NCBI GenBank assembly: GCA_030265395.1
Contig: JARFYF010000074.1
Location: forward strand, 87,385,893 to 87,449,892
Length of the DNA stretch: 64,000 nucleotides
Reading direction: 5' to 3'
Origin: Rhina ancylostomus
Taxonomy: Eukaryota
A program made the translations under genes and the position numbers. Position 1 is the first letter of the stretch; each line of letters starts with the position of its first letter. This document shows, piece by piece, positions 2,660 through 57,179 of the stretch. The notes under the pieces are model-generated. The model was not told where the DNA came from. It saw only the letters and a program-made list of their open reading frames with translations, and did no database searches.

Positions 2660-3155
2660 TTCCTCTTTATGGACAATTTGTATGGTTCTGAGCGTGCCCG
2701 ATATCTCAGGCATAGCCATAAAGAGTGCAACCATAAATTTACTTTTTCTAGATCAAAGGTCTTGCTTTGAGAACTTGCCTGGTCCCAAGCTATGCCTGTA
2801 TCCTGTGGGATATGTTGAACAGTCCTTGTTTCAGTTCTATTCTGACCCATTTCCCCTTTGGCACATTGATAGTTGTACTCATACAGAACTGGAAATTTTC
2901 ATTACTGCCAATTTCTATCCTGCTTTCACTTTTACATGGTACATATTATTCTCTTCACTTCCCTTTTTTGACCTCTCAGGGGATAGGCCTGTGACTAATA
3001 TGCATTATAAGCCCACCAGCTACCACAGCTACCTTGACAACAGTTTCTCCTACCCTGCTTCCTGTAAGGACTCCATTCCATTCTCCCAGCTTATTTATCT
3101 GGGTCATATTAGTTCTGATGATGTGACTTTCCACAACAATGCCTCTGAAATGTTG
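2660..3155 (+). mobile_element. Decayed Penelope-like element, RT C-terminal region
   Basis: ORF 2622..3182 contains TNMHYKPTSYHSYLDNSFSYPASCKDSIPFSQL, resembling the Penelope YKPTDSHSYL..S.HP..CK..IPFSQ motif. It resumes at about 4276-4510. Confidence 0.75.
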
Positions 3156-4275
3156 ACACAAGAGGGACTTCAGGTGCTGTAAATCTGGACCAACACACAC
3201 AAAATGCTGGAGGAACTCAACAGGTCAGGCAGCATCAATGGAGGGAAATGAACAGTCGACGTTTTGGGCTGAGACCCTTCATCAGGACTGGAAAGAAAGA
3301 GGGCAGAAGCCGAATAAAAGGGTGGGGGGANNNNNNNNNNNNNNNNNNNNNNNNNNNNNNNNNNNNNNNNNNNNNNNNNNNNNNNNNNNNNNNNNNNNNN
3401 NNNNNNNNNNNNNNNNNNNNNNNNNNNNNNNNNNNNNNNNNNNNNNNNNNNNNNNNNNNNNNNNNNNNNNNNNNNNNNNNNNNNNNNNNNNNNNNNNNNN
3501 NNNNNNNNNNNNNNNNNNNNNNNNNNNNNNNNNNNNNNNNNNNNNNNNNNNNNNNNNNNNNNNNNNNNNNNNNNNNNNNNNNNNNNNNNNNNNNNNNNNN
3601 NNNNNNNNNNNNNNNNNNNNNNNNNNNNNNNNNNNNNNNNNNNNNNNNNNNNNNNNNNNNNNNNNNNNNNNNNNNNNNNNNNNNNNNNNNNNNNNNNNNN
3701 NNNNNNNNNNNNNNNNNNNNNNNNNNNNNNNNNNNNNNNNNNNNNNNNNNNNNNNNNNNNNNNNNNNNNNNNNNNNNNNNNNNNNNNNNNNNNNNNNNNN
3801 NNNNNNNNNNNNNNNNNNNNNNNNNNNNNNNNNNNNNNNNNNNNNNNNNNNNNNNNNNNNNNNNNNNNNNNNNNNNNNNNNNNNNNNNNNNNNNNNNNNN
3901 NNNNNNNNNNNNNNNNNNNNNNNNNNNNNNNNNNNNNNNNNNNNNNNNNNNNNNNNNNNNNNNNNNNNNNNNNNNNNNNNNNNNNNNNNNNNNNNNNNNN
4001 NNNNNNNNNNNNNNNNNNNNNNNNNNNNACTGCCTGGAGGGGATCAACAGGGAGGGATGAGCAGGCAAGGGAGTCATGGATAACGCAATCCCTGTAGAAA
4101 GCGGAGGGGGAGGGGAGGGGAAAATGTGCCTGGCGGTGGGATCCAATTGGAGATGGCAGCAGTTGCAGAGAATGATATGTTGAATGTGGAGGCTCGTGGA
4201 GTAGTAGGTGAGAACACGGGGAACTTTATCCCTGTTATGTCAAGGGGGGAATGAGGTGAGGGCAGATGTGCAGGA
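3156..4275 (-). mobile_element. Younger Penelope-like element (terminus plus body, spanning an N gap) inserted antisense into the older one
   Basis: Typical terminus (aaaatgctggaggaactcaacaggtcaggcagcatc) at 3200-3240. The minus-strand peptide DPTARHIFPSPPPPLS follows the gap. Confidence 0.7.
3253..3290 (-). ncRNA. Minimal type I hammerhead ribozyme motif (G12>A mutated) in the Penelope terminus
   Basis: Minus strand reads CAGUC-CUGAUGA-A-GGG ucucag CCC-AAAA-C-GUC-GACUG: stem I CAGUC/GACUG, CUGAUGA box, stem II GGG/CCC, (G>A)AAA box and GUC cleavage triplet. Confidence 0.7.
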
Positions 4276-5459
4276 GTGTTTCCATAATCATTGCACCCCT
4301 TCTATTATAGTTGAAGGGCTCTCAAATGCATCTCTATTTCCCACACTTCTACTCTCAGCCCTTCTGTCCCTGTAAATCTGCTTCCCAGCTTCCACCCTAC
4401 CACCCTCCATATTCAACAGATTAGCTTTTGTAATTTCTGCCACCTTCAATGAGATTATACACTCAACATATTTTATCCTCCAATCCTCATTCAGCATTCT
4501 GAAGGGCACATTGTCATTAATACATCTGCCATGGTGTAAATCACGTGGAATTACCGACTATTTCATGGAAGTTTGTTATTCAGCAAATCCAGTGTGTCAG
4601 AACTTAAGAGGATTTTCATGCAGCTGCCTTTTAACTTTGTGGTGAGTGGCTTTGCGTTGGACTAGAGCCCCAGGAGATGGAGGCAGGTAAGAGTTTTGGC
4701 TTCCTTACCTGAAGGGCATTGATAAACCAATTGAGTTTTTAATGAGAAATGGCAACTTTCATGATCACTTTTTCCAGGTTCCAGTTCTTAAATGACAGTA
4801 GTTATTCAATCCCACTAGTAACCTGCCAATTTATAATAATGAACACATGATCCCTGGGTGACTGGTCCACTAAGAATAATTATACACTGACATTCACTCT
4901 TAAGGAATCACACTTCAAAATAAAAGGCAAGGGTTTAATTGGTAGCAGACAAGTAGACAATGGCACTACAGTGATAAGAGGCCATTGCAATGTTCTTTAA
5001 TTTCTTGATGTTAGAACCAATACTGTAAGACTTTATAAAATATGGATGTGGAAGATAGCCATTCTCCAGCATAAATACAAACACCAGATGTATGGAATTA
5101 TGCCGTCAAATGAACTAATGCCATCATCCAAATCCTTTCATCCTGGACTGGAGGCAGACTCTATTTTACTAGTATGAAAGATGTGGCAAAGGTGAATTTA
5201 CTCCTCATTTTTGAAGATGTTTCTGGCAAAAGCGAGAAAAAATAGTGTAACCTTAAATCAAATGAAATATTGTACACAACTGTTGCCTTTTAGTACACAA
5301 ATTTTCATTCTTTTTGAAGGTGCTAACATCAGATATTCTTTAGGCTTCCTACAGGGAATCATAAACTTACATTATATTCTTTATGGATTATATGCATGCA
5401 CAACATCTGATACTCAGACTATATTCAGTGTCTATGATAAAATAATGTAGAATATGAAG

Positions 5460-5745
5460 CATCTTTCAGATGAGATGTTAAATCAAAGTAACCTGCTTTC
5501 TCAGGTAGATGCAATAGATTCCATAGCACTAGTCTTAGACAGCAATCTCCATTGACTAGGCCAATGTTTATCCCTCAGTCAAGGTTCCTTATCTAGTCTT
5601 TATACGATTTCTACATATGGAAACTGTTAGCATCTTGGCTGCAAATTTCTGACATAGGAATTGTCACTTCAAAAAATGCTCCATTGGCTACAAAGTGCTT
5701 TGAAATGAAATAGAAACAAGCAAATGATTTACAAGTGCAAAACTT
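5460..5745 (+). mobile_element. Degenerate Deu-domain SINE (SacSINE1/AmnSINE-like)
   Basis: atctttcagatgagatgttaaatc...ggccaatgtttatccctca...cacttcaaaa...cattggctacaaagtgctttg resembles the recalled DeuSINE consensus and the copies at 21520 and 35040. Confidence 0.6.
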
Positions 5746-7096
5746 TTTGATGCAACAAAGTATCTTCCTATTGTGGAAAAGGGACACTTTCGCCTAGAAA
5801 TTCATCTTGGGTGTTGACTTTCATTGACAATACTGGAATGAATCTTTGAGGCAGAGTACAACATGCTGACATGACTGTATAGTATATTTAATGTTACTGA
5901 GTGAGAATTAATTTCTAAGCAATGTCTTCACATATAAAAAAACAAAACTGCTGCAGATACTCAACAGTTCATTCAGCACCTTTGTGAGAAATAAGTTGGT
6001 GACCATTTTGTTAAAAGGCCACTGACCTGAAATAACACTGTTCACAGCCAATGTCTCCTTTCTGCATAAATTGTTTTCTATAACAACCATAACTTTTAGC
6101 ACTTACTTGATATACTACCCATTGCTGATTGCATGAACTGTAGATATATCGCTGGAACAATTGTTCATAGTTTTAATGTATCTCTCATACCTCAAGGTTC
6201 TATAAACCAATTATTGCAGACCAGTTGCTGTGACTGAAGATAAGCTGCTAACTATGTCTTGGATTATCCTGTTTTTTAAAATATTTCACTCTTTTAGGTC
6301 AACTCCCAAATATTTTCTACAGGAAGGAGATAAAAGTAAATTCTTATCACCTCTCTGTAAGTAGAAGTGCACAACCAGTTTCCAAAAAGTCCAAGAAAGG
6401 CTCAGAGGGATGATTCAATAACCATCCATGTAGAAAAGTGCCTCTTATCCAGTTAAAAATTCCTTATGTTTGTTCAGTTGAAATCAAGGACTCAAAACAA
6501 TGGAGAGCAGTGGCCACAAGGCCGCATAATCACTCCATGTCGCAATTTGTGTATGATACTGTAATTTTGCTTGAAACAAGCAAAAATTTGTTTGCCTGAT
6601 TTTTGCAAACATGCGTTTGAACAATGAGATACTTTTGAAACAGATCATATAAGTGCAATTGGAATTGTTCTGAATATAACAGTCCCAGAACATGCCTATA
6701 AATTAAGTCTAACATAAATAATTTAAATGCAGTGGGCAGCAGGGGACAACTTGTTAAAATAATCATATAAAATATCAAGATGATTCAGTGATAAGAAATT
6801 AAAATAATGATACTGTCACTTCCCCAGCTTTGATTACGGAAGTCCCTTGCACTCTCAAGATCCCACAACAAGGCAAATTGAAAACAACTTGCAGATGTGT
6901 TAATGTCACATGAATAGTTTGGAACAGAAATGCTTGGTGCAAGATTTGTGGCAAGCATTTGCTTGTTTAAAATTCATTGGCACTGGATTACTTAGTACAC
7001 AACTTCACAAACCATTTAATTGCAAATCAATGGTGTATTACCAGACCTGGCCTGCATCTTTCTTCGAGACCTGCAAATTACATATTACGTTTCCTT

Positions 7097-7370
7097 ACAA
7101 CATAGAAAGAGGCCATTCAGCCCATCAAATACATGTTACCTCACTTTTTCCATGTAACCTATTCTCCCCATGTACCTGATTCTCCTACTACTCATTTACA
7201 CTATGGTCAATTTCTAGGAGGCAATTAACCTATCAACCTGCATGTCATTGGGAGGTAGGAGAAAACTGGAGCACCTGGGGGAACCCATGTGGTCACAGGG
7301 AGAATATGCAAACTCTATATAGACAGGAGGTCAGAAGCAAACCTGGTCACTGGAGCTGTAATGCAGCAGC
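7097..7370 (-). mobile_element. tRNA-derived V-SINE (HE1-like)
   Basis: Reverse complement of the V-domain (ggagaaaactggagcacctgggggaacccatgtggtcacagggagaatatgcaaact) plus the CR1-type 3' tail (ggccattcagcccatc). Confidence 0.7.
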
Positions 7371-7739
7371 AAAATGTTCATTAGGTACTCCTTAAAGCAA
7401 CATATGAGAATTGTGGAGCTATCAGCAAGCTCCATTAAGTTTCACTGATTTTCTTTCTTACATAATAATATTGCAGTTAAGTAATGAATGACAAGGAGCT
7501 AACCAGGGACGGAAAAAGAGAAATGTACTTTTAACAGACCCAACTCAAGTGAATAAGCATCCCAAACAATTCATTTTTATATTGGCACTGAGATCTGAAG
7601 TACACTTCAGGTATTCCAAACAGATTATGGGGACATCCTTTAATTAATAAATAGTTGGGGTTTAACTACTTGAACAAGGGAGAAGGCTCCAGATGAAGCA
7701 TTGATTTACTTTTAATGAAGTAAAATCTATTTGATAGTC

Positions 7740-8560
7740 ATGATGTGGCCTTCTCTATGTCAGGGAAACCAAACTGAAACTATTTTGAAAATTGCCTCAA
7801 GGGTGACCCTGAGTTTGCAGTTGCCTTTCACTTGAATTCTCCAATCTGACCTCTTTGCCCTCTTACACAGTTCCAATGAAATTCTATGTAATCTCAAGGA
7901 ACTGCAGTTAAACTTCCAATGTGATACATTACAGACTTAACACTGAATTCAACAATTTCAGATAATCAGCCATTCCAGTTTTGTATCTCACGTTTCCAGC
8001 ATTCATTCTCTTTTCTCTCTCTCCTCTGTTATGATATTTTGGATTTCATTCTTCTCTCAATTACATCTCCTCCAGACACTTCTGTTGTTTTATACTAGCC
8101 TTCACCGTCTTCTTTCAGCTGGCATCTCCACTCCTGGTGTTACTTCATCTCAATTGATCACCTGACTGCTATTCTTCCCCTCTTCTTCCCTCTACCTCTC
8201 CCCCTTCCTCTGCAACTTTTAACTTTTCCCAGTCCTGATAAATAATCATCTACCTGAATATGAAACTCGCTGCCATTGGGAGTGGTTGAAGTGAATAGTA
8301 CAGATAGAAGGAGAGGCTGGACAAACAATTGAGGAAGAAGGGAGTACTGGGTCATAATGATGGATATTTAGATGGAAATATAGAAGGAGGTTTAAAGGAG
8401 GCATAAGTGTCAGTTTGGACTGTTTGGGTCAAATGGCCTGTTTCTGTCGTATATCCAATATAATGCCATCTACAGTGTTAACTATTTATCTCCCACTGAT
8501 GCTGCGTAACCTCCTGCGCCTTTCCGGCATTTTCTGTTTCTATTTCAAATTTCTGGCAAA
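7740..8560 (+). mobile_element. Decayed Penelope-like 3' part and terminus, interrupted by a short CR1 3' fragment (~8270-8460)
   Basis: GIY-YIG-region remnants, a pyrimidine-rich stretch, decayed cagtcctgata..tacctgaa, then the terminus ctgatgctgcgtaacctcctgcgcctttccggcattttctg. Confidence 0.5.
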
Positions 8561-9250
8561 TTTCTCAGTCATGTTGTGATACACATTGGGCACTGACCAC
8601 TTAGAAAGTCCCAGACAGCAGTACAATAAAATGGGGGACCATCACCATATGTGCAGATGAACCTGGGTGCCAAAGATTATGGGTCAAATTTTAATGCAGT
8701 TACATGTGAAAGCTTTTCACATTATCAGTGCATAATCTGTAAAAAACATCTCAATGTCTGTAATACTTTAATGCTAGAATTTTTGTTTTATATCCAGTTA
8801 ATAATGTTCTCAAACTATTTTTAAATGAGGCATGATTGAAATAGGTATATTAAAAAAGTGAAAGTCAGCGTCTTCAAAGCATCAAGGAACTGTTCTGTAT
8901 GAAATCTCAATTTAAAACAATGGACTGAGAAAATACTTTGATGTGGATGGTGGAATCATTTAGGGTTTTGACCCTCTTAAAGAAGAATAAATAAGTAAAA
9001 ACATTTTAATGGAAAATTAAATGAACCCAATGCAAAACATGTGATCAGGACTGCAGAATTTACCTTCACTTATATAATTTCACATAAAGAGTATTTTTTA
9101 TTCTAACAAAATGCATGTGCAAACCTGGTCCAGAAATAGCAACTTCTGATATTCTATAGCATTACAGTATTATTCTCTGAGCAGATTTAAAATGTTCATT
9201 ATAGTGTTGAGTTTACACAGCAGTTTAATGTATTTTCCAGTGAACCCATT

Positions 9251-9480
9251 AAGTTGAAAGGAAGAGTGGGAAAGTGGGCCCTGATAGTTTAAAGAAAGCA
9301 TGGGAAACAGGGCCTTGGTAAGTTTAAAGGGGTGTGCAAAACAGGGAATCAGTGCGTATAAAGGAAGCTTGAGGAAAGGGCCCCAAATGATTTTAAATTG
9401 GGACAGGAATTGGGGCACTGGTATTTAAAAGGAATGCCAGAAATAGGGCCCTCGTGCATTTGAAGAAGCTCAGGAAAAAT
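9251..9480 (+). repeat. Degenerate ~34-35 bp minisatellite, ~7 units (approx. agtttaaaggaagcatgggaaacagggccctggt)
   Basis: Unit starts at about 9252, 9286, 9321, 9355, 9390, 9423 and 9457. Confidence 0.7.
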
Positions 9481-9794
9481 CAACCAGTGATTCAAATGCT
9501 TAACTACTGAGATTTGACCAATGTGACAGTGAATTATCATAGTTTTGTGGTAGCAGAAATCCTGTCCTAGGCTTGGAAATTTGGGCACATGGCAGTTACA
9601 AGTTAATAGTTCTTGAGGCACTCCTGATTTTGAATCTTGAACCTGTTTTCCATTGAGCCACTGAGCTGCAGAGAATAACAAGGCCCAGATTCTGAACATC
9701 CTTTCAGTGAGTGAAAGTGACTAAGAATGCTATGTTACTTTGTACACTGTTCCTGGAAAACTCCAATAAGAAGACAACTCAACAACTGAAAGAA

Positions 9795-11391
9795 TTGCTT
9801 GGGAAGCTGAAAGGTCTGAAAGTGGATAAGTCACTTGGACTGAATGGACTGCACTCCAGGGTTCTGAAAGAGGTGGCTGAAGAGATTGTGGAGGCATTAG
9901 TAGTGATCTTTCAAGAATCACTATAGTCAGGAATGGTTCCAGAGGATGGGTAAGTCACAAATGTCACTCCACTCTTTAAGAAGGGAGGGAGGCAAAAAAC
10001 AGGAAATTATAGACAAGTTAGCCTGACTTCAGTGGTTGGTAAAATTTTAGAGTCCATTATTAAGGATGAGGTTTTGGGGTACTTGGAAGCACATGATAAA
10101 ATAGGCCAAAGTCAGCATGGCTTCCTAGAGGGGAGATCTTGCCTGACAAATCTGTTGGAATTCTTTGAGGAAGTAACAGACAGGATAAACAAAGGAAAGT
10201 CAATGGATGTTGTTTACTTGTATTTTCAGAAGGCCTTTGACAAGGTGCCGCACATGAGGCTGCAAGATAGAAGCCCATGGTATTACAGGAAAGGTACCAG
10301 CATGGATCGAAGGCAAAGAGTGGGAATAAAGGGGGCCTTTACTGCTTGGCTGCAGATGACTAGTGGTGTTCCGCAGGGGTCAGTGTTGGGTCCGCTACTT
10401 CTCGCGTTATATGTTAATGATCTGGTTGATGGAATTGATAGCTTTGTGGCCAAGTTTGCTAATTATACAAAAATAGGTGAGAGGCGAGTAGTGTTTAGGA
10501 AACAGGGAGTCTGCAGAAGGACTTGGACAGGTTGGGAGATCAGGCAAAGACGTGGCAGATGGAATACAGCATAGGGAAGTGTATGGTCATGCACTCAGTA
10601 GAAGGAATAAAGGTGTAGTCTATTTTCTAAATGGAGAGAGAATTCAGAAATTGGAGGTGCAAAGGGACTTGGGAGTCCTAGTGCAGGATTCCCTAAAGGT
10701 TAACATGCGGGTGAAGTTAGTAGTAAGGAAGGCAAATGCAATGTTAGCATTCACTATGAGAGGACTAGAATATAAAAACAAGGATGCGATGCTGAGGCTT
10801 TATAAGGAGTTGGTCAGGCCACATTTGGAGTGTTGTAGGCAGCTTTGAACCCCATATCTAAGGAAGGATGTGCTGGCATTGGAGGGGGTCCAAAAGGTTT
10901 ACGAGAACGATTCCAGGGATGAAAGGGTTAATGTATGAAGAGTGTTTGATAGCTCCAGGCTTGTANNNNNNNNNNNNNNNNNNNNNNNNNNNNNNNNNNN
11001 NNNNNNNNNNNNNNNNNNNNNNNNNNNNNNNNNNNNNNNNNNNNNNNNNNNNNNNNNNNNNNNNNNNNNNNNNNNNNNNNNNCTAGGACCAGAGGGCACA
11101 GCCTCAGAATAAAAGGATGTCCCTTTAGAACAGAGATGAGGAGGAATTTCTTTAGCCAGGGGGTGGTGGATCTGAGGAGTTCATTGCCATGGAATGCAAT
11201 AGAGGCCAAGTCACTGTGTATATTAAAAGCAGAGGTTGATAAGTTCTTGATTAGTAAGGGTGTCAAAGGTTACAGGGAAAGGGCTGGAGAATGGGGTTGA
11301 GAGGTAAAAATAAATCAGCCAGGATTGAATGGGGGAGCAGAATCCATGGGCTGAATGGCCTAATTCTGCTCCTATGTCTTATGGTCTTATG
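9795..11391 (+). mobile_element. 5'-truncated CR1 LINE (HER1-like) with RT pseudogene and 3' tail
   Basis: ORFs encode SQHGFLEGRSCLTNLLEFFEEVT, FQKAFDKVPH, SGVPQGSVLGPLL and RDLGVLV with frameshifts. It ends in a (tatggtct)-type tail. Confidence 0.92.
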
Positions 11392-12034
11392 AAAGCAGCT
11401 TGGAGCTGGCTCCAGCCAGCTTCTTCATGGATTACATTGCAATTGTTTCAAGAAGGTTAAATGGTTCATAACTGATCATGTGTTTAGTGAAAGGATACAG
11501 ATGGTTGAATTGCAAACAACGATGAGTCTCCTGACCTTTAAGTTTTAAGCAGACAATTCTAAACAATAGGCATTGTAGCAGGGCCTGATTATGTGCTCAT
11601 TTGATGTTTATGACCCACTAAGTAGAAATCAGGATTGGGAGGTCTTGTTGAATTTCCCAGACTGAAATTAATGAGGATAATTGTCAAGATCCATCTGCTG
11701 CCTTGAACATGATGAGCTCATTTAGCATAGAGACAAGTTCTTCAGTGGAGATAATGATCTAGTGAGCCATCAGGGTATCTAAATGTTTACAGGTTTTCTA
11801 CTGTTGTCCTGGCACAACTGGTGCAATATTAATGGAACTTGAAAGGGGACAATGCAACTTGTTTGCTGGAATTACAGCGGTTAAATTAGAGACTTGATTT
11901 CAAATTATTGTAGACTAAAATTCGTATTAGCATGTTATTTTAATAGGAATTTGACATATGTTTTCCCTTTACATATATTTATAAGAGTAGGGAAATAAAT
12001 AGGCTTTGCTTGCAACAATCCACCTGAACAAAGT

Positions 12035-13059: not shown

Positions 13060-13215
13060 AGAAAAACATTGATGCTAAAATCTGACATTAAAACAGAAAA
13101 TGTTGGAAACAATCATCATGTCAGGTAGCATCTGTGGAAAGAGAAACAGAGCTAATGCTTCAGGTCTGGGAGCCTTCATCAGAACTGGGAAAGAGAGAAA
13201 ACAAGTTAGTTTTCA
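13060..13215 (-). mobile_element. Solo Penelope-type terminus with a decayed hammerhead
   Basis: Minus strand reads cagttCTGATGAaggctcccagacctGAAGCattagctctgtttctctttccacagatgc. Confidence 0.6.
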
Positions 13216-13483: not shown

Positions 13484-13898
13484 TTTACAGCGTGGTAACA
13501 GCCCTTCCAGCCCAATGAGTTGGCACCACCTATTTTAAACCCATGTTAACCTACCCGTATGTCTTTGGAATGTGGGAGGAAGCCAGANNNNNNNNNNNNN
13601 NNNNNNNNNNNNNNNNNNNNNNNNNNNNNNNNNNNNNNNNNNNNNNNNNNNNNNNNNNNNNNNNNNNNNNNNNNNNNNNNNNNNNNNTCCAGCCCAATGA
13701 GTTGGCACCACCTATTTTAAACCCATGTTAACCTACCCGTATGTCTTTGGAATGTGGGAGGAAACCCAAGCACCCAGAGGAAACCCATGCAGACACGGGG
13801 AGAACGTACAAACTCCTTACAGACAGCGACAGGAATCGAACCCCAATCGCTGGCGCTGTAATAGCATCACGCTAACCGTTACACTACTGTGCCGCCCC
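13484..13898 (-). mobile_element. Young tRNA-derived V-SINE (3' part duplicated across an N gap)
   Basis: Minus strand shows tRNA-like A/B boxes (ggggttcgattcc) and a V-domain; highly similar to 18940-19193. Confidence 0.85.
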
Positions 13899-15794
13899 GG
13901 TACATATGAAATATGTAATATTGACCGTAATATGATCTGAAAAGGGAGTTCTGGAAATAAACATGATTTTGAAATTAATATGGATCTTCACATTCTGAAG
14001 TACAGTGGCTCTTGCCAGTACTAATAAATGATGTAGTCTCTCACAGAATAGCAATGCTCCTCCACACATGCATTATACTTCAGAGAGATAGCAATCTTCT
14101 TCACATTAACTTCCCCGGTAGGTCTACTTGTCTTTGAAATTCAGTCAGCTTTAGATGCAGGTATTACCACACATTCATGTATCATAAGTATAACACTGAT
14201 AAAAGGTATGTCAGGAAAAAACATTAAGAAATAGACTTTAACCGGTGAGATGCTTTGAAAATTGTTAGCTCTCCACTTTGAATATATTATCGTATGTCAC
14301 CACTGCACCAATACCTGTCTAGAATAAGAAATGAATGCTGAATTTTTAGTAGACAATTCTACTGTATGGGTAAATTTTTAATTATATAAGCTCTTATTTC
14401 TCAATCTCAACACAAAATTGAATATCTAAAATAATATAAAAATGACTGAAGTTGAGAAGACAATTTTCAAATCAAACTTTGGTAATGGCTAATATTCCAT
14501 AGGAATTAATTGATAGTTCAATACCATAAATTCACCATATCATGTATATCATAAACATATTTGTTTCTTCTGTATTGTTTCAAAATTGTCGAATTTTTAG
14601 GGGGGCATGCTGAAAGGAAATAGGTGTGGACACATAGATCAGGGTGCATAGCTACTTGCATGCAACTACCAATGCTTGAAACAACCAGAAGTAGGCTATT
14701 TCAATTATCATATAGTTGATGCATTCAATCAACATCCACCTCTTTAGTTTTGCTGAGCACAAGTCAAATGCTCATTATCCATTAAAAGTGGGTACAAGAA
14801 AGATAATGCTGTATGCTCTCATTGCCATTTTGAAACGAGAGGCTGCAAGTAATGCAATATTCTGATCCTTTCTCTAAAAATTATAATCCAAATATAATCC
14901 AAATAGCTGGAATATTTGGGGTGTTTCGAGATGTATAACCCCCTTCAGTAGAACCTGAGTTCCTTTTAGGATAATACTGAATTTGCCTTATTTGATGAAA
15001 GATGAGGAGAATGAACAGGATATCCTGAGAAAAAAAAAGCATTTTGCTTCTTAGAGACTGCATTTATTCCACTGGAGTTTACAGAACAGTAGTGCCTATG
15101 AAGATTTCACAAGTGTGACAATATGATAGCTCTGGCATCTGCTAAACTGCATGGAAAGTTTTCACTGTCCTTATCTGGATATACATACATACAGTACATA
15201 TCTCCACCACCGAATGTTCCAAAATTTCTTTTCTAGAGAAACAGCATCACAGTTGGTTATCAGCTCTGCCTGCCGTCCATTATACAGTGCTTCCTAATCT
15301 CTGAGTAAGCACACACCATTGCAGTAATGATATTGTTGAAGCAGGCAGGCACATATTTTGTCTCATTTGGGCAAGTTCCTCTGCTATCCTCCCAATCAAA
15401 GTGTCAATACAGAACTGAGCCCTGAAAGGCTGAGATAATGGTCCCTATTGCTACCAACAACAGAGATAGAAAGAGAAATTAAGCCCAGCAAGCATATATT
15501 AGGGAACCAAGAGAAAGATTAAGAAGAAGGAACTCAAAAGTAGTAATTTCTGGAATATCATATGATAGTAAATACAGAAATGGGATAATGCAAATAAACA
15601 AAGAGGCATGGAGGGAGGGAAGGGTTTAGACAGGGCATTAGGCGTACTCTCAGAGAGATGGAACATATTGAGGTTGAATGGGTTGTTTTTCAACAGGGCT
15701 CAGAGATGGGTTCACTAATCCTGCGGTGGAGTGTTTATCCTCATCTAGTAAGGGGATGGGCACCAGCATGTAGCAAGGAGAAGGGAGAAACAAT

Positions 15795-15940
15795 AGAAAA
15801 TACCAGAAACACTCAGCAGGTCAGGTAGCATCTGTGGAAAGAGAAACTGTTCATATTTCGGGTCAACCTGAATTGTTAACACTATTTCTTTTTCCACAGA
15901 TGCCACTTGACTTGTTTAGTTCAGGTTTCCAGCATTTGCA
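15795..15940. repeat. Fold-back (inverted) pair of Penelope termini
   Basis: gcatctgtggaaagagaaactgttcatatttcgggtc | aacctgaattgttaacactatttctttttccacagatgc. Confidence 0.75.
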
Positions 15941-21865: not shown

Positions 21866-22949
21866 TAAATAAAACATCTGGCACATCAATGTCCTTCAGA
21901 GAAGGTATCTATCTTCCTCAGCTAATCTAGCCTATATGTGATTCATCGATTGGTCAACTATTAACTTTCTTCTGAAATAGCTTAAAAGGCCACTAAGTTA
22001 GGGCTGGACAATAAATGTTGGCAACGTTCATGTTCCACGAAAAAGAAATTTAAATGCTTTTAGAAATTTATGTTCACTTTTGCAAAAATTGCAATTTGTG
22101 TATTTGAAGGAATATTCGATATAGTTCCAACTCAAATATTGTGTTAATTATTATTCCTTTTGTGTAAAATCCATGAATCAATGGTTTCAATTTTCAGTAA
22201 AAAGCAGGTGCAAAATGTGATTCTGAACTGCCACTTAAAATCTTGTAGTCCAAAGTGAGAGAAAAGAAAGTTTAACTTATCTAGTCAGCTTGAATCACTG
22301 TTAATCATAAGCTTTTATTCAAGTGTGTATTTCATTCATTAGGTTCTTTAGGTAGTCAGCTTTGGGGATCTATGTTGGTTATTTCTTTAGTGAACTTACC
22401 AGCCATTTTGATTTTTGTATCTTGGATTGGAAGATTCCAGAATCTTTGTATATACACATTTCCATTGTCACACCTAATTTTGTTTTTTTTTAAATTTTAT
22501 TTTTATTCTCAATTCCCCAGTAGTGTCTTTAGTGCTCTACAAACTTCCTTCAGAAATAAGGAGACCAGTTGAGCTTTAGACTATTCTACAACTGATTGTG
22601 TTTATAATCTTCTGCCTGATCAGCTGATTGAAATACTTTTTTTAAGGACAAAACAACTGTGCCTGTTTTTGTCAAGTTATATGTTCAGCATTCCAATCTG
22701 GAAAGATCCTCCATCTAGTGGCTAAGATAAAAACTGATCATGATGGCATGAGTTATCAGGCCATCTTGATTGGCAAGGAACCTTAAACGTGCAACCATAA
22801 ATGCTGGGGTTATGAACTCTCAATTAAGAAAAGCTTCTTATAACGCCAACATTTTTATAAAATTGGTAGAGCTGGGTTAATTGTGAAAATGGAAATTTAA
22901 AAAAAAGATTTATAACAGGTAAGAAATGTTAAACATTAATGTGAATAGA

Positions 22950-23297
22950 TTGTGTTTTTTCTTGTAAAAATTGTGTATAATTTATGTTTAATTCATGTTT
23001 TTCTTGTGAATGCTGCTGATATAATGCTACGTGCCTGTGATGCTGCTGCAAGTAAGATTTTCATTGCACCTTTGCATACATGCACTTGTGCATATGGCAA
23101 AAAATTCAACTTTGATTTTTTTTNNNNNNNNNNNNNNNNNNNNNNNNNNNNNNNNNNNNNNNNNNNNNNNNNNNNNNNNNNNNNNNNNNNNNNNNNNNNN
23201 NNNNNNNNNNNNNNNNNNNNNNNATTGCACCTGTGCATACATGCACTTGTGCATATGGCAAAAAATTCAACTTTGATTTTTTTTTACTTTGACTTTG
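22950..23297 (+). mobile_element. 3' end of a non-LTR retroelement with a (tttgac)-type tail; partly duplicated across an N gap
   Basis: gcctgtgatgctgctgcaagtaag..ttcattgcacc..catacatgcacttgtgcatatg..., ending ctttgactttga. Family not determined. Confidence 0.5.
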
Positions 23298-23579
23298 ATT
23301 ATTCAACTAAAATGTCATTATTTTCATATTCCAAATGTAAAAGAATTCTGTACTTTCATGCCACAAACCCTGTAACTGTTTGACACCCAGCTGTGTTCCT
23401 AATTGCATGTCCACTAAGACGGCTTATTTCCATGTCCCTAACATAAGCCATGTATGTCCTGGTCTCAGATCATATGCTGTTGAAACATTTGTCAATCCCT
23501 TTGGTAGCACTAGAAGGCTATTCTAACCCATTCCTAGCCTATTCCAGCCTTCCAATCTATCATTGTAAAAGCAGAGGCC

Positions 23580-24470
23580 ATTGAAAGCGCTGTTATGTCC
23601 ATGCTCACACCAAATCCTGTTCCTCCAATATATCTATGATCCCTGACCCACAATAATTTCAGGTTAAGCAGGCCTTCATTTCAAAATGTTTACCCTTGTT
23701 TTCAAATGCACCCTTAGCTTTACTTCTCCTTAGTTCTACAATCCTCCAAGATATCCACGCTTCTCCAATTCTGGCCTCTTGTGCATTCCAAATTTANNNN
23801 NNNNNNNNNNNNNNNNNNNNNNNNNNNNNNNNNNNNNNNNNNNNNNNNNNNNNNNNNNNNNNNNNNNNNNNNNNNNNNNNNNNNNNNNNNNNNNNNNNNN
23901 NNNNNNNNNNNNNNNNNNNNNNNNNNNNNNNNNNNNNNNNNNNNNNNNNNNNNNNNNNNNNNNNNNNNNNNNNNNNNNNNNNNNNNNNNNNNNNNNNNNN
24001 NNNNNNNNNNNNNNNNNNNNNNNNNNNNNNNNNNNNNNNNNNNNNNNNNNNNNNNNNNNNNNNNNNNNNNNNNNNNNNNNNNNNNNNNNNNNNNNNNNNN
24101 NNNNNNNNNNNNNNNNNNNNNNNNNNNNNNNNNNNNNNNNNNNNNNNNNNNNNNNNNNNNATTTCACCATCGGTGACCATCCCTTAATCTGCCAAGGCCC
24201 TAATTTCTAGAATCCCTTGCTTCAAGCAGTCTCCATCTCTTCCTCTTGTTCTTCTTTCAGGTCCTTCTTAAAACCCATCTTTCAAGTAAGCTTCAACTAA
24301 CTACTTCAATGGCTCGATGCCAATGAATGCACTCCTGTGATGCTCCTTGATGGAGGATCTTTCCAGAGTGGAATGCTGAACATATAACTTCACAAAAACA
24401 GGCACAGTTGTTTTGTCCTTTAAAAAATGGAAATGATAAAGGTGTTTTATAAGTACAAGTTGTTATTTTG
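23580..24470 (+). mobile_element. L2-type LINE 3' fragment
   Basis: ctccaattctggcctcttgtgcattcc, ccttcttaaaacccatcttt and the terminal ataagtacaagttgttatt are typical of L2 3' ends. Confidence 0.55.
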
Positions 24471-27259: not shown

Positions 27260-28600
27260 CCGGGCAGTTTGCCCCCAGGACCGAAGGCAGCCCCCCCCCC
27301 CCCACCCCGGCGGGAGACGACGTCTCGAGTGAGCGCCTTTCAACCGTCGTTTAAAAAATAACCGACGTTGGGCGAGGCGCAGGGCGCGCGTCGCGGCCGA
27401 TCTGCTCCGAGAGGAAGGTGACGATTGAGCAGGAAGGGTGGGGGGGGGGAATAACCTAGAAACTCCGCCGGGCTTCTGATCTCTCCGCTACCGCCAGCCG
27501 ACCCAGCGAAGATGGCACGGGAAAAGTCCACGGATGATGGTGGAGGATGGAAGAAATTCCTCTGGGATTCCGAGAAGAAGCAGTTTTTGGGCAGGACCGG
27601 CAGTAGCTGGGGTAAGTAGCCGGCTCGCTTCTCTTCCCCCCCCCCCCCCGTCCCGGTAATCGGTCTCGTTTTTCTCCTCTTTCCACACCCCCCCCCAAAA
27701 AAAACAAAGATATGTTTGGGTGGCGGTTAATGGTCCACCACGCTAAAGGCTGCGAGGTGTTGTTGGTGGATTATCTGGGAGTAATTAGTTTAAAAAAGAG
27801 TGTAACCATGGTGTGAGGGCGACTTGGACCGATTTTAGACAAAAGCGTGGGTGTAAAATGGTGCGCGCTTGTGTGTGAGAGAGCGAAGCAGTTAATGGCA
27901 CCGGCTTCCGCCTTCCTGTAACATGCGTGACTGTGGCGGGCGTGTGTTCAGAAGCAAATAAAAGTCAATGTGAAGGACATTGTGTGTAGGGGGGCAGGAG
28001 CCCGGCCGCTGTTTACAGGCGCGGGCGCGTCACAAGTACGTGGTCGGCGTTTAAAGGGATTGAAAGAAAAAGGCTGGGGGATCTGGGGGTGATGGTTGCT
28101 GGCGTCGTCGTGGTCGGGGAGAGGGGAGGCAGGAGGGTTGTGTGTGGAGGCATAGCCCGGCGTTTTGGGGGGGGGGGAAGGATCGTGGGGGAAGAGAGCG
28201 AGAAGTTTGCGCGCACGAGTTCCGCAGTCCCAAGGTTGTTCAAGGTGGCGGGCTCGGCCGAACCCCACATGGCAGCCGCAAACCCGGAATTGGTGCGGAC
28301 GCGCCGGGTGGTGGGGGATTCCCCCGTTCCCCTCCCCGGGGGGGGGGGAGGGCGGCGGAGGACGGAAGGGTCTGTGTGTGTGGGGAGGGGTTGGAGGCAG
28401 AACGAGCTTGATTAAGGTGGCGGGAGTGGAAGCGAGGAGGAGGTGGTAAAGGATCGGGATTTCGTCTCTTAGCAACCGATGGTTAACCGGCGTGTCGGAT
28501 CCGTGCACCCGGGCGGGGGGGACTGATCGTCTGGATCCGCAGAAATCAGTCACCAGCCGGCACTGCCGTGCAGGATTTATTATAAAAGTACACAATCTTA
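27260..28600 (+). promoter_or_regulatory. CpG island covering the ATP1B1 promoter/5'UTR, exon 1 and start of intron 1; TATA-like TTTAAAAA near 27350
   Basis: Abrupt rise in GC and CpG content in an otherwise AT-rich, CpG-poor window, centred on exon 1. The upstream part is lost in the gap at 26817-27258. Confidence 0.8.
27512..27611 (+). CDS. ATP1B1: Na+/K+-ATPase beta-1 subunit, coding exon 1 ([33 protein letters not shown])
   Basis: ATG in a strong Kozak context (gcgaagATGG). The WKKF-W..EKK..LGRT..SW N-terminal beta-subunit motif is present. The exon ends at G|gtaagt; 100 nt, phase 1. Confidence 0.97.
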
Positions 28601-29049
28601 GTAGTACGGCAGTTTTAAAATAAACCCCCGTTTTCGAGCTTTTGTTTTCTTCATGTACCAATAAACATCCCGCAATGGTGTCATAAGTTGATTAATTTTT
28701 GGCCCGAGTCTCCACCCTTGTCCTTGGAAATTTTTCTGAAGACCTTGAAAGTCAGTCAGTTGAATCTTGCTGCTCAAAAGCGGGCCGCGTGAATTTTAGA
28801 GAAAAGCATCAGTGTGGGCCAGTACCAGGCCAACCTATCGTATCCTCCTACCCCTTCCCACCCTTGAGTCATAACTTCAAATTGCATCGCGATAAAACAC
28901 TACTTACAGCAATAGTGGAACATCCTGAGGTCGAGCTTAGTCGTCATTTGGACAATGAATCGCCTTTAGGCATTTGATATCTCTATAACTACTCTGCAGT
29001 GTTCATCTGAAGTTTAAAGAGTAATGTCGTTTTCTGTATTATCTTGTAG

Positions 29050-29178
29050 TCAAGATACTTTTATTCTACTTGATCTTTTACGGCTGCCTGGCTGGAATCT
29101 TCATCGGAACCATTCAAGTAATGCTACTCACCATCAGTGATTTCGAACCAAAATACCAGGACAGAGTTGCACCTCCAG
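29050..29178 (+). CDS. ATP1B1: ATP1B1 coding exon 2 (transmembrane helix; [44 protein letters not shown])
   Basis: Acceptor ttgtag| and donor |gtatat; 129 nt, frame continues from exon 1. Contains the FYGCLAGIF and YQDRVAPPG hallmarks. Confidence 0.97.
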
Positions 29179-30101
29179 GTATATCGCTTTAGTATTTTTA
29201 AACGTATAAAGGGGTGGAAGATATAGATAAGTGTATTGGGAGCTGATGATAACGTGTAATTGGGCTTTAACTGTGTAAATTAATTCAACGCACTGGTGTG
29301 CTTATCGATGTGTTGGAGTAGAAAAAGCTTGCGTGTTACAGTACCACTATGCTAGGAGGCAACTGGGAAGGTCACTTGTAGTGATATGCAATTTAACTTT
29401 CGCATTGTTCCGCCGAATTCGGGCTTTATAAATTTGAGGGTTTCTTGAGGGGTAAGTGTGTTGTATTTACCAAGATTGCATTTAAACAAAAAACGAATGG
29501 CTGCTTAAAGGGACATTATATTCACTGGTGTTCACGTGGGCTTGTTACGCTGGGTTATGCCACCATAATTTGTAGTGTACTACATTTTGATTGCTATTGA
29601 AGAACTTAAAAGGGGGCTCTTATGTTGCTTGCAGACTACTTGTGTAATATGCACCACAATGTACTTATTACATAAAGGCCTACTTTGTTTTTAAAATTCC
29701 AGCAGTTAACGTGGTGCTAAGGTATAACTGCCCTAGATGTTCAGTATTGTGTTGTGCAAGTAGCTTATTATTTTCTGAGCCACTGTTATTTCTGATGTTT
29801 ACACACGTAATTACAAGTCTTCTCTGTAATTAGTCTGCCCTAAAACAGGAACAGTAAAACAAGATGCTGCTCTATTGTTCCTAATCCATCCAGAAGATGT
29901 GCATACTTCGGAATATTCCAAATCCTGATGGATCTCTTGTATCCAGCTATTTTAAGTGACTTCAGATTTGCAATTGCAGTCCCAATATTAGTAACATACG
30001 TAACCATTGCTTTACTTAATAGAATAATTACTTTAAAAACTAAATATCCTGTGGTTTCAGTAAATTTATTAATTATCTTTAAATTTCAACTTCATTTTTA
30101 G

Positions 30102-30257
30102 GTCTATCGCGTACTCCATATGATGCAAAAACAGATATTTCCTTTAGTGCTTCAAACCCAAGCTCCTATGAAAAATATGTGAATGGTCTGAACAAGCTTT
30201 TGCAGAATTACAATGATTCACAACAAGGCGGCACCTCTCCTTTTGAGGATTGTGGCA
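30102..30257 (+). CDS. ATP1B1: ATP1B1 coding exon 3 (LSRTPYDAKTDISFSASNPSSYEKYVNGLNKLLQNYNDSQQGGTSPFEDCG)
   Basis: Acceptor tttttag| and donor |gtaagt; 156 nt. FEDCG motif; overlaps ORF 30179..30391. Confidence 0.96.
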
Positions 30258-33200: not shown

Positions 33201-33808
33201 GCACCTCTTATTTGTTGAGTGTGTCATTTTGTGGTTTCAACTTAGTTCTGGCTCCTCCAATGATTTTACTAAATGGTTCACTGAAATTTTACGAAAATTA
33301 AATGCCAGCAAGAAAAACATTGATATTTGCTGTTTTACAGGGTCCAAAAGTTTTAGTAAATTTGTCTCAAGTTTTTATTATTCGCAACCCATTTCCCCAT
33401 GATTTCCAAACAATGCAATGGCAATGACTTCTGCACTGGGTGTCAGCCACCACAAGCTAATGATAATTTTAAGTTTTCTGAGCCAAAGATTATTTTCAAC
33501 GTAGCCTATATTATAGGTTGCTTGCTGTTTTCAGGTGCTGTGGTAGCTTTTCCATTGATTTCTTTTCCAAGGCAGAAGAATAAGTCTTGGGTATTTTAAG
33601 TACAATGAAAAAAATTATTTCTGTATGGAGCATGTTTCATATTTTTCTATACTTTGGGGAAAGGGGCAGGGGGGATCAACTGAAAATCTGAGGAGTTATT
33701 TTAAGTGTTCCAGGTTTTGCTTGATTCTATTTAATATGCAGTTTTAGTTGAATGCATTGTAATTGTTTGTAAAATGTGTTAATAATTTTACAATATCTGT
33801 TGCTTTAG

Positions 33809-34590: not shown

Positions 34591-34674
34591 CCTCCAAAAA
34601 ATAGCACCGATCTTCCTGGAGCGTTGCAAGCAAATTATAATCCATTTATTCTTCCAGTTCATTGTGAAGCAAAG
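34591..34674 (+). CDS. ATP1B1: ATP1B1 coding exon 5 (PPKNSTDLPGALQANYNPFILPVHCEAK)
   Basis: Polypyrimidine tract + ag| acceptor and |gtaagt donor; 84 nt, phase 0 at both ends. Confidence 0.95.
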
Positions 34675-44924: not shown

Positions 44925-46520
44925 GCAGAACACTGGAAGAACTCAGCAGGTCAAGCACCATCTGTGGAGACATTCAACAGGGAGAGAATGAAGGGCAGAC
45001 AGAACCAGATGGGAAGAGGAGTTGAGGAAGGTGAACAAAGGGAAAAGAAAACTGGTGAGCATGTGTGGGAGAAGAACACTAGATGCGGGGGTTACTTGAA
45101 ATTTGAAAATTCAATGTTTACATCAGTGGGTTGTCAACTTCCCAAGCAGGATACAAGATGTCATTCTTCCAATTTGTATTTGGCCTCATCTTAGCAATGG
45201 AGAAGGTCAAGGACAGACTGGTTGGCATAAGAATGGGAAGGAGAATGCAAAATGGCCTTTGTGGAGAGAGTGCAGGTGCTCTGCAAATCGGTCACTTAGA
45301 CTACACTTGGTTCCACTAATATCGAGGAGGCCACTTTGTGAGCACCAAGTGCATTAGACCAGGTTGGAAGAGGTGCAGGTGAACCTCTGCCTCACTTGGA
45401 AGGGCTGCTAAGGTTCCTAGCTGGTGATGAGGGAGGAGGTGAATGGAAACATGTTAAACATCCTACGACTGCAGGGGAAAGTGTTGGGGAAGGGGCAATA
45501 GTGGGTGGGACACGATGAGCAGACCAGGAGTTACAAAGAGAGTGATCAATGTGAAAGTACAAAGGGGGTAGAAAGAGCAAGATGCGACTGGTGGTGGATC
45601 ACACTGGAAATGGCAAAAATGGCAGAGAATGGTGCAGTGAAAAGTGAGGACCAAGGGAATTAACATTACTATTGCTGTTTGGAGACACAAGAGACTCTGG
45701 ATACTAGAATCTGTGGCAATAAACTAACTGTTGGAAGAATTCAGCAAGTCAGGCAGCATTTGTGCAGGGAAATGGACAGTTGACATTTTGGGTTGAGACC
45801 CATCACCTAGACTGAAAGACGAGANNNNNNNNNNNNNNNNNNNNNNNNNNNNNNNNNNNNNNNNNNNNNNNNNNNNNNNNNNNNNNNNNNNNNNNNNNNN
45901 NNNNNNNNNNNNNNNNNNNNNNNNNNNNNNNNNNNNNNNNNNNNNNNNTAGTGAAAAAGTCTTGAGAAGCAATAGGTGGAGGTATCAAAGGGCTGCAGAT
46001 TATGGAATCTATTGCTGTTCCATCTCGGGAGAGGAGGGTTTGAGAGCAGATGTATGGGAAATAGAGGAAATGTGTGCAAGGGCTCCATCATCCATAACAG
46101 AGGGGAAGCCCTGTTTCGGGAAGAAAGAGGACATTTCAGAAGCTTGTGAGCAGAAGGCCTTATCTTGAGAACAGATGTGGTGGAGATGGAGAAATTGAGG
46201 AAAACATTGAATGTTCCAATTTCAGATACCCCAGTGTTCTCCTCCAACACATACTTCACCCGTAGATCTCGTCTTCTTACTTTGTTCCTCTTCCCCATCC
46301 CTACCCCCATCTGGTTCCACCTATCACCTACCAGCCTCTGTCCCAGTCCCCATACTGCTGTACATTTGGCAATCTTTCCACTTCCCTCTCAGTCCTAATG
46401 CAGCATCTCAGCCCGAAACGTTGATTTACACCTTTTACCTCCACAGATGCTGCTTACACACTGAGTTCTTCTAGCATGGTTTGTTGTTCCAGATTCCAGC
46501 ATCAGCAGTTTCTTCTGTCT
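44925..46520 (-). mobile_element. Penelope-like element body (GIY-YIG end/RT C-terminus) between inverted termini, with a nested terminus insertion at 45680-46008
   Basis: Termini at 44925 and 46390-46520 face opposite ways. Minus-strand peptides LIPLVLTFHCT and a degenerate E.HL.S.LGS.QPTD.NIEF are seen. Confidence 0.7.
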
Positions 46521-47074: not shown

Positions 47075-47205
47075 ACATTCCAATTTTGATGAAGGGTCAC
47101 AGATAGAAAATATTGATTGTTTCTCTTTCTGCAGATGTTGCCTGACTTGCTGTATTTTTCCAGCATTTTCTGTTTGTGTTTCAGATTTCCAGCATCTGCA
47201 GTTTT
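47075..47205 (+). mobile_element. Solo Penelope terminus with decayed hammerhead, adjacent to an antisense CR1 endonuclease remnant (~46700-47075)
   Basis: ttttgatgaagggtcacagatagaaaatattgattgtttctctttctgcagatgttgcctgacttgctg...cagatttccagcatctgcagt. Confidence 0.6.
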
Positions 47206-54562: not shown

Positions 54563-54888
54563 ATTCTTGTACACAAGGTTATCAGTCTGTTTCAAATACT
54601 GACCACAGAATTTTTAACTCATATTATATGTTAGCTTATATGTTAACTGAGGACAAAACAAAGCTGGTTATATTTTCATTTCCTTTTTTTTCCAAATCTG
54701 AAATGTTTTCATAGGATAAAATGTTGGAAGGCATATCCATGAACTTTACAAGGAAAAGGAAATTCCATGCTCAACAAATTTTTATGCTTTTTTCCTCATG
54801 ATTACAGAGGCGAGTTTGATTGTGGGGAGGCATGGTTATTGCACCTGTATTCTCAGCAAGAGATCCACGCCATTTTGATCAAAATAAT

Positions 54889-54995
54889 CAGAATGTTGGA
54901 AGAACTCAGTGGGTCAAAGAACATCCATGGAGACATGCATCCATCCTTTGCCTCCACAGATGCTGCTTGACTCACTGAGTTCTTCCGGTGTTCTG
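54889..54995. repeat. Hairpin made of two inverted Penelope termini
   Basis: cagaatgttggaagaactcagtgggtcaa... / ...ttgactcactgagttcttccggtgttctg. Confidence 0.8.
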
Positions 54996-57179
54996 TCTTT
55001 TTTAATTCCCATTTCCAGAATCTGCAGTCTCTTTTGTCTTCAAGCAATTTTGANNNNNNNNNNNNNNNNNNNNNNNNNNNNNNNNNNNNNNNNNNNNNNN
55101 CACAGACTACTTGCTTGGGGTGAAGTGGGTATCTGGTAACCTCCCACTGAAGCTATTAAAGCATAAAGAAAAAGACACAGGAAAAGTAGCAGCAATGCTC
55201 ATCATTCAGTTTTTCTACAAATCACATACTATTGGATCTGCAATTAGTGAATTTTCATTAATGTTCTATGTAGATATTTACAAGAATGGCAAGAGTCATT
55301 ATCCATTGGTAAATGTCAAACAACAAACAAATTATAACTGCAAACATAGAATGAGTAAAAATACAGCTTTAGTTCAAAGATATCAGACTGGTTTAGAACT
55401 ATTTATTGCAGCAGTTACATGAAACAATAAAATTCTTTTTTGGATAAAGTACTAGGAAAAAAGTCTTAAAATATTAATTGTCAGGTTTTTAAAAGGAATC
55501 TGTTAATTGAAATTAAAATGAGCATTTTCATATTTGGAAATAGTGAAGTTTTAAGGAGAAGTATGTTGGCAAAAATAAGTTAGCTAATGCAAACCTAACA
55601 CAGACTGCTAAAAATTCTGCTCAGGTTTCCACGCAGCATGAGAAAGAAAGGGAGAAAGTGATGAATGAATGACCTGTACAACAACTATCTCTAATAGGGA
55701 GCTTCTACTCATCAGATGAAACATGTGAATAATTGAATCATTCACATGGTTAATCTAAATCCCAATTAAGATTCCACTTTGATGCTCACTAGTTCTCCCT
55801 TTAAGTTAAGTTGGCAATGTACAACAGCATATTGGTAACAGGAATAATACAAAATACAACTTACTCATTTACAAAAGTTACAGTCAACACCACATAGAAT
55901 TTTTCTTCAAGTTTTATTCTAAAACCCTGATAGTAGATCTGATTGCACATTAGACAGTTAATATTTGCTTCACCTATCTCTATCTTTGTGATGATAGATG
56001 GAAGAATATTGTTGACTATACCTACAGAAAACAGTAGAGATAAGTTCAAGGAAAGAATAATTAATTAAATATACTCAAGATGTGAGCAGCACAAGGGTCA
56101 TCAAGGATACAAAAATGGGGAGAATCAAGGTAGATGTCAGAAATTAAGAAAGAGTGTAATCTGTAAGTATTTGGAATGATTTCACTGGAGTAGATTAAGA
56201 TAACTGATATTCAAGAGATGTTTTTAACACAGAAGGCTTTTGAAAGGACAGGTGACTATATTCTTTTGTTGACAAGAATGAGAAGATGTTACTAACTTAT
56301 CACCAAGAAAGTGGGCAAAGATCCTAGGAAAGTTATGGATGCACAGTTATTAAGAACATGATTGCTTCACCACAGTGAGTGGTTGACGGTTTATAAGGGA
56401 AAGTACATTTTTCACAAAAGGTACAAGTGTTTTCACAACATTGAAAGAATATATTAAGAAAAATCAAGAAAGAAACAAAGTCAAAGAAACTGAGTTTTTA
56501 AAACTGTAAAATGTCTCAATGTGGCAGAATTAACAAAATTACTTATCTACTAATATAATTTTTCCAATAGTTAACTTTATGAAAACTTCTAAATGATGCT
56601 TGCAGCTACAAAGAAAAAAATGCAATGGCGAATGCACAATTACATCGTTAAATAGCAGTAAGGATTACTTGTTGCAGCAACTGGAATTGTTTATAAGGCC
56701 TACAATTCATGGTGTAGACTGTAACATCATGCTACTTTCCAACTTCCAGACAGCTATCCTATATGTGTTTTCTTTTTGTATAGGAGGTCTGATTTAATTG
56801 AACATTGCCTCACTTGAATAATAGGGGTTTAATCAACTTATGACGACATTCTACAGTGTACAGGCTAACTAAGCAAACAGATCTGCTCATTTTCTGAAAT
56901 CTGTGTTTAAAATTAAATGTATGTTAACTTTTTACATCCTGAAGTAATTATCTCTTTCTTGGGAAAATAGCAATTTTGAAAAAGTTACAGTAAAGTCACT
57001 GATCTAGACGTGTTGAGTGGAATCTGCTGCCCACATTGGACCCTTGGATTCCCCATAGCCACACACCGTCTGCTTGTTGGAAGTGGACTGGACCTGACTG
57101 GTGAAGCACTTGTTGCACAATACGATCAAGTCACTTGTACCGACTGGAGAAGCCCCACTCATTAATCTCCAGAACACTA

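Follow-up and report, generated by a model that had tools for sequence, protein, structure and literature searches.

A minimal hammerhead motif in a truncated, likely Neptune-type Penelope-like element of Rhina ancylostomus and its core-altered sister lineages

The minus strand of a 64,000-nt stretch of the Rhina ancylostomus genome (hereafter, the window) carries at 3253-3290 a short sequence that a first-pass annotation took for a compact self-cleaving ribozyme in the terminus of a Penelope-like element (PLE). The locus raises the questions whether this is a hammerhead at all, whether this copy could still cut, and whether cutting matters to the family that spread it. We consider it very probable that this is a minimal hammerhead (min-HHR) motif near the 3' end of a 5'-truncated PLE copy, likely of the Neptune clade and likely dead via G12>A at a CpG, with a master RNA that would need help to cut and with copies made from uncut RNA.

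The letters read exactly as annotated. Stem I comprises 5 bp (3290-3286 pairing with 3257-3253), the CUGAUGA box (C3-U4-G5-A6-N7-G8-A9, 3285-3279) is intact, an extra A follows A9 at 3278, the palindromic ACGU leaves no loop 3, C17 is nucleotide 3258, and the G12-A13-A14-A15.1 box is broken, as 3265 reads A at G12. Of the parts named by the annotation, stem I, the box, the extra A, the G>A change and ACGU stand, but the 3-bp stem II is better drawn with 4 bp (3277-3274 with 3269-3266), the last pair being U-G, closed by a tetraloop. Further min-HHR features (stems I and II, G10.1-C11.1, an extra nucleotide past A9, and U16.1-H17) are present. The analogy with the CChMVd hammerhead, offered earlier for the extra A, is real (PMC3376415) but needless, since the extra nucleotide is listed as a consensus trait of the PLE min-HHRs themselves (PMC4209133).

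A chance likeness to a hammerhead in an ordinary repeat would agree with two observations, namely, that the Rfam search of the window gave no hammerhead match up to E=10 and that the CTGATGA word occurs in it at chance level (13 seen vs. 12.8 expected). Against this, the descriptor (G or A at 12, 5-bp stem I) has 3253-3290 as its sole match in the window and no match in 100 Markov nulls, the motif sits in a PLE terminus and fits the published consensus, and the changes between subfamilies fall on paired or free sites; hence we regard coincidence as highly improbable.

The PLE copy spans about 4278-3150(-), that is, ~1.1 kb (Table 1), and is nested antisense inside an older PLE, whose RT resumes on both sides (2745-4506); no target-site duplication is evident by eye. 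The GIY-YIG region of this copy is hidden by N, and the order RT, GIY-YIG, pLTR was seen in four related loci (L127, L106, L118, L120). The first of them has, on one strand, RT, CxxC linker, GIY-YIG, pyrimidine-rich UTR, an intact hammerhead and a tail of about 130 nt. This order in relatives, together with the match to L127, bears out the assignment of the motif to a PLE terminus. Of the 30 loci selected by RT, a same-strand terminus follows downstream in 11, the query's own locus included, and most of the remaining ones stop in N or at a contig end. Among 30 intact-copy loci (L031-L060), 23 have a run of N at most 300 nt upstream, vs. 3 downstream; the C/T-rich PLE UTR is an assembly breaker.

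Table 1. Features of the hammerhead-bearing elements in the window.
Feature	Coordinates	Strand	Basis or details
Older PLE RT fragment, left half	2745..3140	+	E 4e-21; query positions 61-186
pLTR tail 3' of hammerhead, reaching the family's 3' end	3150..3252	-	84% to L127 over 3330-3147
Minimal type I hammerhead motif	3253..3290	-	G12>A at 3265, loop II G>A at 3270; predicted cleavage between 3258 and 3257
Pyrimidine-rich UTR end, closing in CAG within stem I 5' strand	3291..3330	-	sequence
Run of 698 N, expected place of GIY-YIG region and most UTR	3331..4028	.	
Decayed PLE RT end and linker start; 5' truncation near 4278	4029..4278	-	78% to L127 over 227 nt (4278-4052); tblastn E 3e-22
Older PLE RT fragment, right half	4297..4506	+	query continues, positions 194-259
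Probable old-subfamily copy split by about 210 nt	8229..8558	+	front 8229-8260, tail 8471-8558
Terminus of the old subfamily (3-nt loop II), with changes in A15.1 and stem III	13070..13190	-	blastn, profile
Head-to-head fold-back pair of termini	15792..15937	.	profile
U4A-lineage terminus, core decayed further	45695..45817	-	profile
C-at-9 lineage terminus, G5>A, stem II broken, GAAAC kept	46387..46509	+	blastn, profile
Old-subfamily terminus, decayed	47078..47202	+	blastn, profile
Head-to-head fold-back pair of tails without hammerheads	54870..55028	.	profile

The translations of L118 and L127 contain a CX2-5CxxC linker between RT and EN. Because this linker marks Neptune or Nematis and is missing from Penelope/Poseidon (PMC8557442), the element likely belongs to the Neptune clade, the linker being a trait common to Nematis. 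Pfam matches of the related proteins were below cut-off (RVT_1, E=0.00045, in L119; GIY-YIG, E=0.034, in L118), with no match in two of five; all three PLE fragments of the window yielded no Pfam family, and the PDB search with the L127 RT yielded no match. Partial tandems and inverted truncated copies, a trait of EN+ PLEs, are found at 44895-46509, 15792-15937 and 54870-55028, and a fold-back partner is present in 5/29, 7/30, 1/21 and 10/25 loci of four locus sets.

Many copies are short hammerhead-plus-tail stumps, two intact motifs lie 170 nt apart (L034 and L035), and PLE-pLTR-derived retrozymes have been reported in one chondrichthyan (bioRxiv 10.64898/2026.07.22.740005), all of which would suit a motif belonging to a non-autonomous unit, retrozyme or SINE-like, able to cut and circularize in tandem arrays. 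The 3253-3290 copy, however, is single, with a PLE ORF upstream; only 4 of the 29 loci with intact copies have a same-strand neighbor within 600 nt, and no array, let alone a non-coding tandem one, is present within the window. We therefore give the retrozyme reading very little chance. The L034/L035 pair (G000:C7:74622926 and 74623096; same strand, with an N run between) is a candidate natural dimer or an assembly duplicate.

Further termini were called with a profile built from random genome copies, with a reversed random sample as a control; it found 12 in the window (61 kb of called sequence) and none in the reversed sample. Four of the five additional copies claimed for the window, those at 13147, 45776, 46390 and 47081, align to the 3253-3290 motif by blastn and to the profile. 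The fifth, at 8229, was missed by the profile (16-nt match, E=5.2), but compared with the old-subfamily UTR and hammerhead front it scores 56, the best of 30 references (shuffle maximum 42), in low-complexity DNA, and it is probably one split copy, because its tail resumes beyond the gap. All copies had been thought to look inactivated, and indeed no window copy passes the strict descriptor. The idea of one poolable consensus had to be abandoned: the six copies represent at least four subfamilies and are unfit for pooling, because two of them, at 45776 and 46390, belong to lineages (U4A and C-at-9, respectively) with altered cores in their own masters. These two lie in a composite at 44895-46509, consisting of the C-at-9 terminus (+), an inverted RT piece, the U4A terminus (-), linker, GIY-YIG, UTR and a hammerhead-less tail; the parts from the linker to the tail (45634-44895) follow the U4A terminus on the same strand. 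An Rfam match to plastid psbJ at 54899-54985 is explained by the fold-back pair of tails.

In order to place the window in the genome, nine large contigs were sampled at even spacing in 80 pieces of 10 kb each (800 kb in all, of which 684 kb is called sequence). In this random sample the profile detected 144 termini, and none in the reversed control, in agreement with the genome-wide spread proposed earlier; scaled to 2.2 Gb, this gives an estimate of about 400,000 termini, and the window density is average. Of 113 random hammerhead-spanning N-free copies, only four keep the core by regular expression, and the strict descriptor including stems has two matches in the whole sample; some 5,000-11,000 core-intact copies may thus exist genome-wide, a rough figure derived from 2-4 per 800 kb.

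Exact intact 38-mers with both CpG guanines number 65 (control, 0). With the 11.1-12 dinucleotide, and the loop CpG, left free, we counted by hand CG 45, TG 31, CA 21 and other 3 among the first 100 of 405 matches listed, where TG and CA did not differ significantly (p=0.21). Because both CpG decay products occur, the master had G12, and the sequences indicate that the master core of the 3253-3290 subfamily was intact, including G12 of the GAAA box. The G>A change is accordingly well accounted for by CpG decay, as had been suggested, and the expectation of an intact consensus holds for this copy's own subfamily but fails for the six copies taken together. A candidate G12A master lineage, prompted by an excess of A (19) over T (5) among 35 clustered, unselected copies (three of the original 38 lacked the motif and were removed), is ruled out by the same CG/TG/CA split. 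Among the first 100 of 575 matches listed (hand count), G is kept at the catalytic G12 in 49 and at the free loop-II CpG in 48; non-CpG core sites are changed in 16/350 cases vs. 26/489 for other non-CpG motif sites (p=0.75), and tail sites in 117/1605, the core being slightly less changed (p=0.08). Since core sites decay like the non-core motif sites, inserted copies show no clear selection on the motif, and the decay is neutral-like.

The change of G12 to A abolishes hammerhead cleavage. Given that G12 acts as the general base (PMC6155905), and that it has been changed to A at a CpG, the 3253-3290 copy is likely a dead relic rather than an active min-HHR member. Domestication by the host, with the element cleaving a host transcript, could draw on this being the best-kept copy in the window (fold z=-1.9) and on the core-intact copies estimated above; but G12 is lost, the motif lies upstream of ATP1B, about 25 kb from the first mapped exon, and the 93% best match to other copies fits a younger subfamily and not selection. 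With no sign of host use, we think domestication extremely improbable.

The ATP1B gene encodes a Na,K-ATPase beta subunit (PF00287) at 29049-38845(+), with coding exons at about 29049, 30083, 33832 and 38606-38845. The annotation had the family spreading into introns as well; none of the six copies lies between the mapped ATP1B coding exons. The GC-rich stretch at about 27300-28400 is probably the ATP1B promoter and first exon. When contigs from four runs were aligned to 40000-59000, all joints were repeat-driven and no exon could be read. The window also holds two copies of a LINE-type RT element (9954-11393 and 61505-62725; RVT_1 E=2e-14), about 86% alike and in opposite orientation, and near-identical short duplications at 13506-13766, 22637-24427 and 23063-23284 (79 and 61 nt beside 100-N gaps, and an 82-nt inverted pair), likely in part assembly artefacts.

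Clustering of 181 unselected copies (188 minus seven dropped for N) resolved several subfamilies. By hand count, 69 of 83 old-type copies, whose loop II has 3 nt, carry U at position 2.1, and position 1.1 holds A in 57 and G in 21. Where the loop has 4 nt, C occupies 2.1 in 95 of the first 100 matches listed, out of 2,386. The first stem I pair (2.1-1.1) has thus moved between C-G (young) and U-A (old), with U-G seen between. Pair 10.1-11.1 is G-C, G-U or A-U, and 10.4-11.4 is U-A or U-G across subfamilies, while N7, a free core site, is U, A, C or G. A set of 22 genomic copies, related to one another and mostly selected by pattern, has stem II paired throughout (100%) and a covariation score above that of all 500 shuffles; the pairs changed on both sides, two in these same rows, are matched by 243 of the 500 shuffles, and the outer two stem I pairs are often broken. 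With one clear double change and three one-sided changes, i.e., few independent events, the comparison proposed as a check on stems I and II gives modest support to the view that subfamily changes keep the inner pairs of both. The ACGU palindrome (15.1-16.1) is present in 22/22 rows, most of them pattern-selected for it. A second 6-nt palindrome, centered on the cleavage site, occurs in all subfamilies (GUCGAC, GUUAAC, or GUUGAC with a wobble); it could form a competing inactive dimer, or may simply follow from the stem I sequence.

The folding model disfavors unaided activity. Nearest-neighbor energies, which contain no tertiary terms, favor for the monomer a non-catalytic rod in which GAUG pairs with CGUC (-12.7 vs. 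-10.5 kcal/mol); for two molecules, the best co-fold reaches -33.7 kcal/mol, and the active dimer lies far above it at -19.9 kcal/mol. In an active element, the RNA is predicted to fold into a hammerhead only with help, coming either from a second pLTR copy, which would provide a 4-bp ACGU stem III, or from the element's own protein; the aided hammerhead would cut weakly after GUC, and genomic copies would most likely be reverse-transcribed from uncut RNA, with the motif as cargo. The 3253-3290 copy has no intact partner nearby; its nearest same-strand motif is 10 kb off and broken. The dimer-type label of the annotation goes back to the literature. Among published min-HHRs, activity was absent in monomers and weak in dimers (PMC4209133). 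The Poseidon_Ac hammerhead, the only one of a PLE assayed together with its own protein, cut just in the presence of that protein, and insertion in vitro did without cutting (PMC11167929). The role of PLE hammerheads has been termed unclear (PMC8557442).

The 5' junctions of the copies speak to the same point. Among 118 readable random copies, 41 start at -10..+4 from C3 and 44 at +5..+39, and only 13 around the cut (+25..+34, the cleavage site being +28); the front excess is significant (p=5e-4), though alignment drop-off in the low-complexity UTR could inflate it. Of 90 front-intact copies, 33 have clearly foreign flanks, 45 UTR-like ones and 12 unclear ones. Copies start at the front edge of the ribozyme, not at its cleavage site, and since the ends gather there, they come mostly from uncut RNA. 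The front edge resembles an initiator and may be a start site; with its pyrimidine tract and CAG, it may also be a splice acceptor. In D. virilis, an intron ends at helix I (PMC4209133). No real spliced copy joining the ORF end to the hammerhead was found in all loci examined, and because no shared upstream exon was seen in the 33 foreign-flank copies, a start site or an RT stop is favored. A cap-derived G was considered as well, since 8 of the 10 copies that begin precisely at -4 have G at -5; with several of these being fold-back junctions with purine-rich partners, the pattern was given no weight as support.

Two sister lineages bear on whether cutting is needed at all. When U4 was left free, U occurred 61 times, A 31, C 7 and G 1 among the first 100 of 108 matches listed (hand count). 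The U4A state is linked to its own tail (12/18 vs. 2/36, p=4e-6) and also to its own UTR, the lineage has 2,577 matches on 26 fixed sites, and a PLE ORF lies directly upstream in 2 of 21 U4A loci (L205, L220). In the second group, C follows G8 in 31 of 37 copies and is tail-linked in 19/24 vs. 0/36, with no ORF within 1.5 kb at the C-bearing loci. In this C-at-9 lineage (L222-L246), loop II is UUCG, stem I spans just 3 bp, and fold-back partners are more frequent than in any other locus set (10/25 loci). The A adjoining stem II never varies (22 rows). Among 113 random copies, 10 are U4A-like, 11 C9-like, 29 canonical and 63 unreadable. Changes in the hammerhead core are usually crippling, and U4C lowers activity (PMC3088659); the literature search for activity of U4A or C9 hammerheads found no paper giving a measurement.

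Both lineages spread widely with altered catalytic cores in their masters, which suggests that cutting may be needless for jumping. A broader reading is that the fold is kept for a non-cleavage job (RNA 5'-end definition, protein binding or RT stop), with catalysis relaxed even in active masters. The U4A and C-at-9 records given above argue for it, as do the starts at the front edge and the catalytic mutants of Poseidon_Ac, which left insertion in vitro unaffected (PMC11167929). On the other hand, apart from these changes every subfamily master seen retains its core, canonical cores occur in the two youngest-looking subfamilies, the altered lineages could have been mobilized in trans, and, given the invariant A next to stem II, the C at 9 may be an insertion before the true A9. 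We view the non-cleavage role as a tenable minority reading. Tentative, and to our mind rather doubtful, is its sharpest form, a natural knock-out, in which U4A, with its own RT/GIY-YIG ORF, and C-at-9 reached thousands of copies after putatively crippling core changes, stems and front-edge starts being kept, so that the hammerhead would serve as a structural mark of the 5' end, and transposition in vivo would not require cleavage. The preferred reading remains that of a master RNA cutting with help and of copies made from uncut RNA. The 3253-3290 copy is in itself unimportant, one among about 400,000 decaying termini; the family, in turn, comes with canonical, U4A, C-at-9 and old GUU-type motifs, all 38-39 nt long. 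They form a matched natural series in which the genomic success of each type is on record, and which could link catalytic ability to amplification.

Finally, we compared the family with known systems. Lunse et al. reportedly described small hammerhead variants cleaving as dimers, which are said to be PLE-associated, with a short stem III and a dimer model, and may include U4 or A9 variants. The closest likeness is to the PLE min-HHRs (Cervera and De la Pena 2014, PMC4209133), which are type I, with CUGANGA plus one extra nucleotide, G10.1-C11.1, no loop 3, palindromic 15.2-16.2, a stem I of 3-5 bp and a U-rich 5' flank, and which occur mostly as single dispersed copies from truncated PLEs, with some opposite-strand pairs; an oyster row of their Fig. 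S3 has the same GUC/GAC stem I. Unlike in those rows, stem II here is short (4-5 bp), and about 400,000 termini are estimated; all Fig. S3 rows examined carry U4 and A9, the amplified U4A and C-at-9 lineages being absent among them. The supplement file searched has no shark or ray row, and, one chondrichthyan retrozyme report apart, the literature search brought up no paper devoted to PLE hammerheads of sharks or rays.

The coding part resembles Neptune (or Nematis) EN+ PLEs (Craig et al. 2021, PMC8557442) in its RT, CX2-5CxxC linker and C-terminal GIY-YIG, as well as in partial tandems and inverted 5'-truncated copies beside the pLTR; unlike in those elements, no intact ORF was seen among the loci here. 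Poseidon_Ac (Frangieh et al. 2024, PMC11167929) likewise has a pLTR hammerhead and no end pile-up at the cleavage site, with short inserts expected from internal RT initiation, but it belongs to another clade, lacks the linker Zn motif and starts its ORF inside the hammerhead; activity was shown there and is putative here. Earlier publications already cover PLE-terminal min-HHRs with their extra nucleotide, Neptune elements of fish, and dispersed copies of truncated elements; the core-altered lineages are the addition made here.
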